Positions 39,120 to 39,233 of a stretch of 64,000 nt of DNA are shown in pieces. Origin of the DNA: Candidatus Latescibacterota bacterium. GTDB taxonomy: Bacteria; Latescibacterota; UBA2968. The notes beneath the pieces are model-generated. The model did not search any database, was not told the DNA's origin, and saw only the letters and a list, made by a program, of their open reading frames with translations. Positions within the stretch are counted from its first letter, which is position 1; each line of letters starts with the position of its first letter. The DNA lies in assembly GCA_965205975.1 (NCBI GenBank), contig OZ242195.1:2912001-2976000 (forward strand), read 5' to 3'. The position numbers and the translations under genes are program-made.

Positions 39120-39233
39120 TCAACAAGAACAGTCGTGGGGGTACCAATCCACATCAAGAAGCCATCCCCCCCAATTCCAACCCGTCAGGTCCTCAATGCG
39201 ACCAAGTCGTTTAACACTGGGAGTCTGGTACAT
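39120..39233 (-). CDS. Lasso peptide precursor (37 aa, MYQTPSVKRLGRIEDLTG-WNWGGWLLDVDWYPHDCSC)
   Basis: RBS AGAAAGGAGGTGA; leader YxxPxV...GxxxxxT motif with Thr at -2; core Trp1 and Asp9; double stop; adjacent RRE gene. Confidence 0.82.
   Translation of the reverse strand: MYQTPSVKRLGRIEDLTGWNWGGWLLDVDWYPHDCSC

Follow-up and report, generated by a model that had tools for sequence, protein, structure and literature searches.

Gene A and its surroundings

The window, by which we mean the whole stretch of 64,000 nucleotides analysed here, belongs to a genome (G000) assembled as a single contig of 5.56 Mb and 98.3% complete. Its minus strand carries a small gene, gene A (39120..39233; ATG at 39233-39231, stop at 39122-39120), encoding a 37-residue lasso precursor with an 18-residue leader (39233-39180) and a predicted 19-residue core (39179-39123). 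A ribosome-binding site, AGAAAGGAGGTGA (39239..39251, minus strand), lies 5 nt upstream of the ATG, while translation of the plus strand of 39120-39233 gives no such protein. The original prediction had described this 37-codon ORF, its sequence and its strong RBS, and all three are as written, on the minus strand. Both ORF and RBS are conserved in a related genome, G007, where GGAGGTGA likewise precedes the precursor: leaders are identical at 51 of 54 nucleotides, and core plus stop at 39 of 60. Gene A is also on record from gene callers. The G7 run, whose length had been flagged as critical for the core, is stable, with no difference or gap in the contigs of runs X1 (depth 76) and X3 (depth 221).

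On the same strand, gene A is followed by an intact gene for a family-4 glycosyltransferase (GT4; GT-B fold family; 37738..38982, probable start 38964), with PF00534 and PF13439 above cut-off, and by a terminator-like hairpin (37695..37727, minus; z -6.3) that closes the cassette. Right after the precursor stop there is a 13-bp stem-loop (39049..39083, minus; region z -3.45 in the window and -2.0 in G007), whose arms are the same in G007 and whose predicted role is to stabilise the transcript from gene A to the GT4 or to attenuate it there. A 17-nt inverted repeat flanking the window precursor, considered as an RNA clamp, was not found in G007 and was rejected, and no promoter signal rose above chance (3 found vs 4.3 expected). 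Upstream, the cassette is flanked by a MacB/FtsX-type duplicated ABC permease (39817..42228, minus). An RND efflux set (30211-37192; periplasmic adaptor, a 1358-aa AcrB-like protein with a large insertion and a TolC-like protein, names from sequence inspection) converges on the terminator, and is present too in the empty-site genomes described below.

Most of the maturation genes are deleted in this genome

Gene A had been placed directly downstream of a PqqD/RRE gene. Such a gene does adjoin it, but it is not intact: what remains is a B1/PqqD remnant (39379..39618, minus; PF05402 40 bits, cut-off 23.4) without its first 9 codons, preceded by a stub of a lasso cyclase gene (39619..39698, minus) that keeps only the first 26 codons, 25 of its 26 residues being identical to the N-terminus of the G007 cyclase. 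At the deletion junction (39618..39620) cyclase codon 26 is joined out of frame to RRE codon 10, and the stub runs on to a stop at 39570, giving a 42-aa fusion ORF. There is no start codon near the 5' end of the remnant, and a GTG at 39573 could yield only a 64-aa fragment. From the full-length cyclase P0107 and the spacing in G007 we estimated a deletion of ~3.6 kb, which took most of the cyclase, the B2 peptidase, a UDP-sugar epimerase and the start of the RRE. No microhomology was evident at the junction.

We compared six of the 23 listed sequencing runs with the locus. Contigs of X1 and X3, two samples of one study, span the junction at the depths given above, and X1 may be the source of the assembly. 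In X5 and X6, which are sponge metagenomes of two further studies, contigs part from the window sequence at 39618 and 39620 and go on into an intact RRE start and an intact cyclase. An additional, minor contig of X3, at depth 7.7, has the cyclase intact and the beginning of B2, and fits a second strain. Run X10 (coral label) covers epimerase DNA only and was set aside as evidence for the cluster.

Across the whole genome there were no matches to the B2 models PF13471 or NF033537, and the cognate cyclase as query found only the stub beside the RRE, with no other cyclase; PF00733 gave four matches, none within 50 kb of the precursor. The original prediction missed that B2, nearly all of the cyclase (C) and the RRE start have been lost here. 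Because B2 and C are missing, no lasso would be expected in this strain, although gene A and the GT4 may still be transcribed. The cluster in the window is probably inactive, and we are confident that its precursor is not matured.

Elsewhere in this genome, a PqqD-domain radical SAM protein is encoded downstream of a split kinase/ATPase gene (G000:C1:3084813-3086252, L007).

An intact cassette occupies the site in a relative

G007 was the only match to the cassette among 40 related genomes searched with DNA (91% over 1.9 kb). Its genes run in one direction in the order permease, cyclase, B2, NAD-dependent epimerase, RRE, precursor, GT4 and terminator, split over two contigs with the break inside the cyclase. 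In X5, contigs connect one flank of the epimerase to B2 and the opposite flank to the RRE. A diverged variant of the cluster in RNA run X14 also connects the RRE to the 3' end of the epimerase, and its presence among RNA contigs is a weak hint of transcription. The epimerase is in this way tied to the cassette in G007, X5 and the X14 variant, the X5 linkage not being independent since it is nearly identical to G007.

In G009 and G001 the site between terminator and permease is empty, which makes the cassette an accessory unit. The permease probably does not belong to it, since G001 and G009 have permease DNA but no cassette here. The terminator hairpin is likewise found at the empty site of these two genomes. 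At the G009 site most of the MacB-type permease has also been lost, with 266 bases of its 3' end left (L030:4915-5192). In the terminator hairpin, the 7-nt loop is inverted between the window (37708-37714) and G007 (L028, about 3659-3665), the stems being the same.

The cognate B1, B2 and C genes are all present in G007. The RRE of G007 is intact (88 aa) and matches the TfuB1 (6JX3) and TbiB1 (5V1U) structures with E about 0.002. Its B2, a transglutaminase-like leader peptidase, scored above cut-off with NF033537 (35.5 vs 33) and PF13471 (36.7 vs 26), and Cys101 and His137 are found in 9/9 close homologues checked. The full cyclase, P0107 (637 aa, 85% to the G007 piece; PF00733 71 vs 21), is asparagine-synthetase-like with an SGGIDS motif. 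Against the curated lasso-cyclase models NF033535 and NF033561 it fell far below the cut-offs (23.5 vs 525; 22.2 vs 300) and is therefore a divergent member. It aligns over 538 columns, at 23%, with a protein encoded beside a Streptomyces lasso-type precursor of similar leader. A PDB sequence search with the cyclase gave no match, and its single-sequence AlphaFold model, with a pLDDT of 35, was set aside.

One B2 homologue (P0006, 46%) has a frame that continues into a sequence resembling a lasso precursor; it is either a miscall by read-through or a fusion of B2 and precursor. G001 holds a second, unrelated lasso locus (L036:2918-6588 and L035:14149-19711) with a 46-aa precursor, cyclase, B2, RRE, kinase-like and transporter-like genes, then another RRE-like gene and GT2-like, distant GT4 (28% to that of the window), nucleotidyltransferase-like and aminotransferase-like genes. 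A further lasso-like locus in G001 (L037:8557-10557) has a B2 match and an asparagine-synthetase-like cyclase apparently split in two frames.

One conserved leader precedes hypervariable cores

Searching the precursor alignment against 168 genomes of the phylum gave two positives (G000 and G007), and the B2 protein one (G007). A spurious precursor match in G035 (E 9e-4), in another frame of a long gene, was dropped before counting. Five of seven library-wide phmmer hits (P0017-P0021) were Trp-rich repeats matched by chance, and the other two were true precursors. Scans for related loci, using B2 in genome contigs and the RRE in metagenome contigs, found no relative, and a tight leader pattern had 0 matches in metagenome contigs. 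With a loose pattern we obtained two Streptomyces loci; the one that was read was rejected, its leader being similar and its core unrelated. This Streptomyces lasso-type precursor (L039:7998-8102) has a leader very like that of the gene A family, while its core would start with Gln and has Asp8.

Altogether, six homologous precursors of four core types were recovered: those of the window (WNWGGWLLDVDWYPHDCSC), P0010 (WNWGGWLLDGDWYPHDCSC), G007 (FDFGGWAIDVAFMPHSCSC), P0008 (WNGGGETLDWLFNEHCPSC), P0011 (WNGGGDTLDWLFNDHCPSC) and P0009 (WQCMGDRIDVFLCRHEISG). Source labels of the related proteins were Gemmatimonadota, Latescibacterota or Poribacteria. The leaders have 17-18 of 18 residues in common, whereas between core types only 5-10 of 19 agree. 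Comparing the window with G007, we obtained for the core a dS of 0.8 and a dN of 0.46 on few sites, against a dS of 0.13 for the GT4, suggesting that cores may be exchanged or change fast. For the four other precursors the longest contig is equal in size to that of a B2 plus GT4 orthologue (499447, 69318, 52646 and 6773), an indirect sign that precursor, B2 and GT4 lie together. The P0010 core differs from the window core by one residue, and from these shared contig sizes a near-window core would therefore lie beside an intact B2.

The lasso-leader motifs of the original prediction stood in part. YxxPx(L/V) and Thr at -2 are found in 6/6 precursors, but the lasso-leader HMM NF033521 gave the window leader 15.3 bits and three homologues 13.9-15.8, with a cut-off of 19, and a regular expression for the motif matched once in the 5.56-Mb genome (this ORF only) and once in the reversed-genome control. 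As the reversed genome also gives one match, the leader pattern alone is not beyond chance and proves nothing, and we dropped it as support; the case for a lasso precursor rests on context and conservation.

All six cores are 19 residues long, with only Gly5, Asp9, His15 and Ser18 invariant. The conservation of Asp9 and of Thr-2 on which the predicted lasso depended holds throughout, Asp9 being the sole acid at core positions 7-9 in every homologue. Residue 1 is aromatic (one member begins with Phe rather than Trp), and a Trp1, which had been called rare but known, has its precedents in the Trp1-Glu9 rings of fusilassin and cellulassin (10.1101/2020.11.25.399105). Other details of the window core are not family features. 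The proposed plugs W12/Y13 and the four Trp are not kept, position 13 being Y, M, N or C, and the C-S-C tail is one arrangement among several: each core has exactly two Cys, at 17/19 in 3/6, at 16/19 in 2/6 and at 3/13 in 1/6. In five of the six cores, including that of the window, both Cys thus lie in the tail (as in class IV lasso peptides), and the sixth has Cys3/Cys13. Ser18, which together with His15 makes up the invariant part of the tail, is the sole Ser/Thr common to all cores, and also the sole Ser/Thr of the window core.

With Thr-2, an aromatic residue 1, Asp9 and the cognate genes in G007, the original assignment is upheld: the ORF is very probably a lasso precursor, and gene A a real lasso-type precursor of an uncharacterised family.

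The neighbouring glycosyltransferase and the lost epimerase

The adjacent GT4 and the deleted UDP-sugar epimerase, absent from the original prediction, are the most informative genes of the cassette. The GT4 is 94% identical in G007, with a dN/dS of 0.21. It has an E-X7-E motif, which serves catalysis in GT4 enzymes; among 14 orthologues checked, the 11 that are near full length have the identical motif. Six of these 14 share their contig size with a B2, one is that of the window and six are on contigs below 9 kb, while for the remaining one, on a contig of 463,958 bases, neither a precursor nor a B2 was retrieved. The GT4 matched just 12 protein clusters at E <= 1e-60, with identities of 39-47% in 11 of these. 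In a quick tree, whose base is unresolved, the orthologues group together; the tree gives no donor.

The cassette epimerase is an 89% copy of a gene found in 10/10 congeners searched, with its N-terminus replaced; in G000 that gene adjoins the ATP synthase genes. Against the other copies, the cluster epimerase has a dN/dS of 0.11-0.17. Both it and the GT4 look conserved at the protein level. In the 90% cluster of the epimerase one member is named UDP-glucuronate 4-epimerase by its source; the best NCBIfam models stayed below cut-off, and the best structure match was 5U4Q, labelled dTDP-glucose 4,6-dehydratase.

The GT4 family has 18 paralogous places, and we examined ten stretches of 18-20 kb covering 11 of them. 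Five stretches (L070, L071, L073, L074 and L077) contain processing genes of the RiPP type, for radical SAM/SPASM proteins, for an HExxH protease that bears an RRE, or for both. These are not independent, because four of the five are one related module (77-84% identical protease). Nucleotide-sugar genes are found in 5/10 stretches too: UDP-GlcNAc 2-epimerase and UDP-sugar dehydrogenase in L069, L070 and L077, and SDR epimerases in L073 and L074, L073 holding its own extra copy of the cassette-type epimerase. Paralogues in L068, in L076 and near 2.50 Mb in G000 lie in glycan-like loci (GT2, sulfotransferase, heparinase). These contexts support, short of proof, peptide glycosylation with uronate donors.

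The recurrent module (L071:526-9896 in G001; L073:5386-17562 in G020; L070; L077) combines a GT4 with the RRE-bearing HExxH protease and a 334-aa protein of unknown kind. In two of the loci it follows a radical SAM/SPASM gene and a small acidic ORF that contains Cys, and L073 has in addition a methyltransferase and the epimerase copy. The module is a candidate glycosylated radical-SAM RiPP family. Another locus (L074:5675-15392 in G008) has a radical SAM/SPASM gene, a small Cys/Asp-rich ORF, a MacB-type permease, a GT4 and an SDR epimerase.

A proposed glycosylated lasso and its alternatives

We propose, with a probability of roughly 0.6, that intact strains make a lasso with a 1-9 macrolactam ring and one disulfide, to which the GT4 adds a sugar, possibly a hexuronic acid and probably at Ser18, while the window copy is likely not matured. 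By analogy with lasso biochemistry (PMC9266682, PMC13352647, PMC7689547), the RRE would bind the YxxP leader, B2 would cut after Thr-Gly, and the cyclase would use ATP to link the freed Trp1 or Phe1 to Asp9 by an isopeptide bond, closing the ring around the tail. The conservation pattern suggests that the thread would be held by His15, as plug, together with an aromatic at position 11 or 12, and that the two Cys would form a disulfide, tail to tail in five cores and from ring to loop/tail in one. Purely from gene context, Ser18 would then receive a sugar from the GT4, and the epimerase would convert UDP-glucuronate to UDP-galacturonate as the donor. On these same contextual grounds the enzyme is a good candidate for modifying the peptide; given that it does, Ser18 is the favoured site, and a hexuronate donor is an even bet. 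The calculated monoisotopic masses for the window core are 2332.95 as a lasso, 2330.93 with the disulfide and 2506.96 with one hexuronic acid added as well, and those for the G007 core 2070.84, 2068.83 and 2244.86; a hexuronic acid adds 176.03 Da and a hexose 162.05 Da.

Some observations weigh against parts of this proposal. Six cores of four types are few, and the invariant Ser18 could be structural. The epimerase, as an 89% copy of a congener-wide gene, may have hitch-hiked. Some other GT4 loci are glycan-like, and the cyclase and leader scored below the cut-offs of their models; product, threading and sugar are predictions from sequence.

The strongest alternative, which we nevertheless consider unlikely, is that the intact cassette makes a plain disulfide lasso, with GT4 and epimerase being passengers or acting on a cell-surface glycan or another acceptor. 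The GT4 paralogues in glycan-like loci would fit such a role, and in G016, G008 and G020 the distance between epimerase copies and GT4 islands is 10-17 kb, making capture by proximity possible; nor did our literature search give any GT4 acting on a lasso peptide. Yet the GT4 stands directly after the precursor, inside the inserted cassette and before its terminator, and accompanies B2 in six sets of equal contig size. The epimerase in turn lies within the operon, between B2 and RRE, and Ser18 is invariant, all of which speaks against this alternative.

It is improbable that the GT4 instead S-glycosylates a Cys in the manner of glycocins, leaving no disulfide between the pair. Cys is indeed the final residue in 5/6 cores, and bridging Cys17 to Cys19 would make a tighter disulfide than that of the felipeptins (Cys13-Cys17; PMC7689547). 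However, no Cys position is invariant and their number is always two, as for a disulfide, and the S-glycosyltransferases of glycocins are described as GT2 (PMC11912497), whereas the enzyme here is a GT4. A metal-binding lasso, glycosylated or not, in which His15 and the two Cys form a Zn or Cu site, seems slightly less probable still: His15 is invariant, two Cys are always present and H15-x-C17-x-C19 occurs in 3/6 cores, but the spacing of the Cys to His15 varies (17/19, 16/19, 3/13), more in keeping with disulfides than with a fixed site, and the G007 cassette as seen holds no metal-uptake gene. Least credible is that the deletion is an assembly artefact, or that the window precursor is matured in trans and the strain makes the peptide, since, although X1 may be the assembly source and the minor X3 contig carries an intact cyclase and B2 start, the joined form is found in contigs of both runs, the minor contig fits a second strain, and the search of the single-contig, 98.3%-complete genome gave no B2 or cyclase elsewhere.

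Relation to known lasso peptides

The glycosylated, disulfide-bearing 1-9 lasso that we favour would share features with several known systems. Fusilassin/fuscanodin and cellulassin (Thermobifida) are alike in their Trp1, 9-residue ring and split B1/B2 (10.1101/2020.11.25.399105; PMC13352647), but close the ring on Glu9, while the present family has Asp9, two Cys, a GT4 and an epimerase, and one member with Phe1. Among the lasso classes, the predicted tail-tail disulfide of 5/6 cores resembles that of class IV (LP2006, pandonodin, felipeptins), and the predicted ring to loop/tail disulfide of the sixth that of class III (BI-32169) (PMC7689547, PMC13352647, PMC9266682). Unlike those peptides, here the Cys are spaced i,i+2 or i,i+3 in the tail (Cys13-Cys17 in felipeptins), both arrangements stand behind one leader, and glycosylation genes accompany them.

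Glycosylated lassos described so far are the davasins, made with the GT2 IgtG, and the pseudomycoidins (PMC11912497, PMC8498205, PMC9266682). They are rare, the davasin paper, in the portion available, naming only pseudomycoidins as predecessors (PMC11912497). The davasin cluster (igt) is alike in having a dedicated glycosyltransferase, with O-glycosylation of Ser (PMC11912497), but IgtG is a membrane-bound deacetylase/GT2 fusion preferring UDP-glucose (PMC11912497), whereas we find a stand-alone GT4, an epimerase in the operon and Cys pairs. Pseudomycoidin (psm cluster) is also a glycosylated lasso modified on a Ser near the C-terminus (PMC11912497, PMC9266682). Its sugar, however, is on phosphoserine and needs a kinase and a nucleotidyltransferase, while here the Ser is penultimate and no kinase or nucleotidyltransferase of the pseudomycoidin/paeninodin type lies between permease and terminator in G007 as assembled.

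Outside lassos, the cluster of the lanthidin cacaoidin offers a GT4, Cao24, in a glycosylated-RiPP context (10.1101/2020.05.20.105809). Cacaoidin differs in that it is a lanthipeptide with its sugar on Tyr and that its cluster has two GT2 enzymes besides, and its authors call the role of each enzyme unconfirmed (10.1101/2020.05.20.105809). Glycocins differ in that a GT2 S-glycosyltransferase acts on a linear precursor (PMC11912497), whereas here a GT4 gene accompanies the B and C genes of a lasso cluster. In sponges, lasso clusters that encode glyco-, sulfo- and nucleotidyl-transferases have already been noted (PMC9426513), and the gene A cassette may be among those gene-cluster families; the accessible text of that study differs from the present account in giving no precursor, glycosyltransferase family or product. 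In the literature we searched, mostly outside subscription journals, nothing was found on the gene A family or on a GT4- or uronate-modified lasso.

A broader generalisation can be formulated, which we regard as doubtful in its entirety: that sponge symbionts make lassos O-glycosylated by a GT4 with hexuronic (galacturonic) acid on the penultimate Ser; that one invariant leader serves hypervariable cores switching between tail-tail (including Cys-x-Cys) and ring-linked disulfides; and that the GT4 clade with its UDP-uronate supply genes acts throughout the genus as a plug-in peptide-glycosylation module in clusters for lassos and radical-SAM RiPPs. The genes to express sit in relatives such as G007 and not in the window; the intact cassette is compact and expressible, and the modification it predicts would be new for lassos. 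If the proposal is true, a soluble GT4 encoded together with a gene for its sugar donor, and with naturally hypervariable cores, would be a new means of placing a sugar, which might be charged, on lasso scaffolds, and the cassette would offer a first product hypothesis for the lasso clusters of uncultured sponge symbionts.
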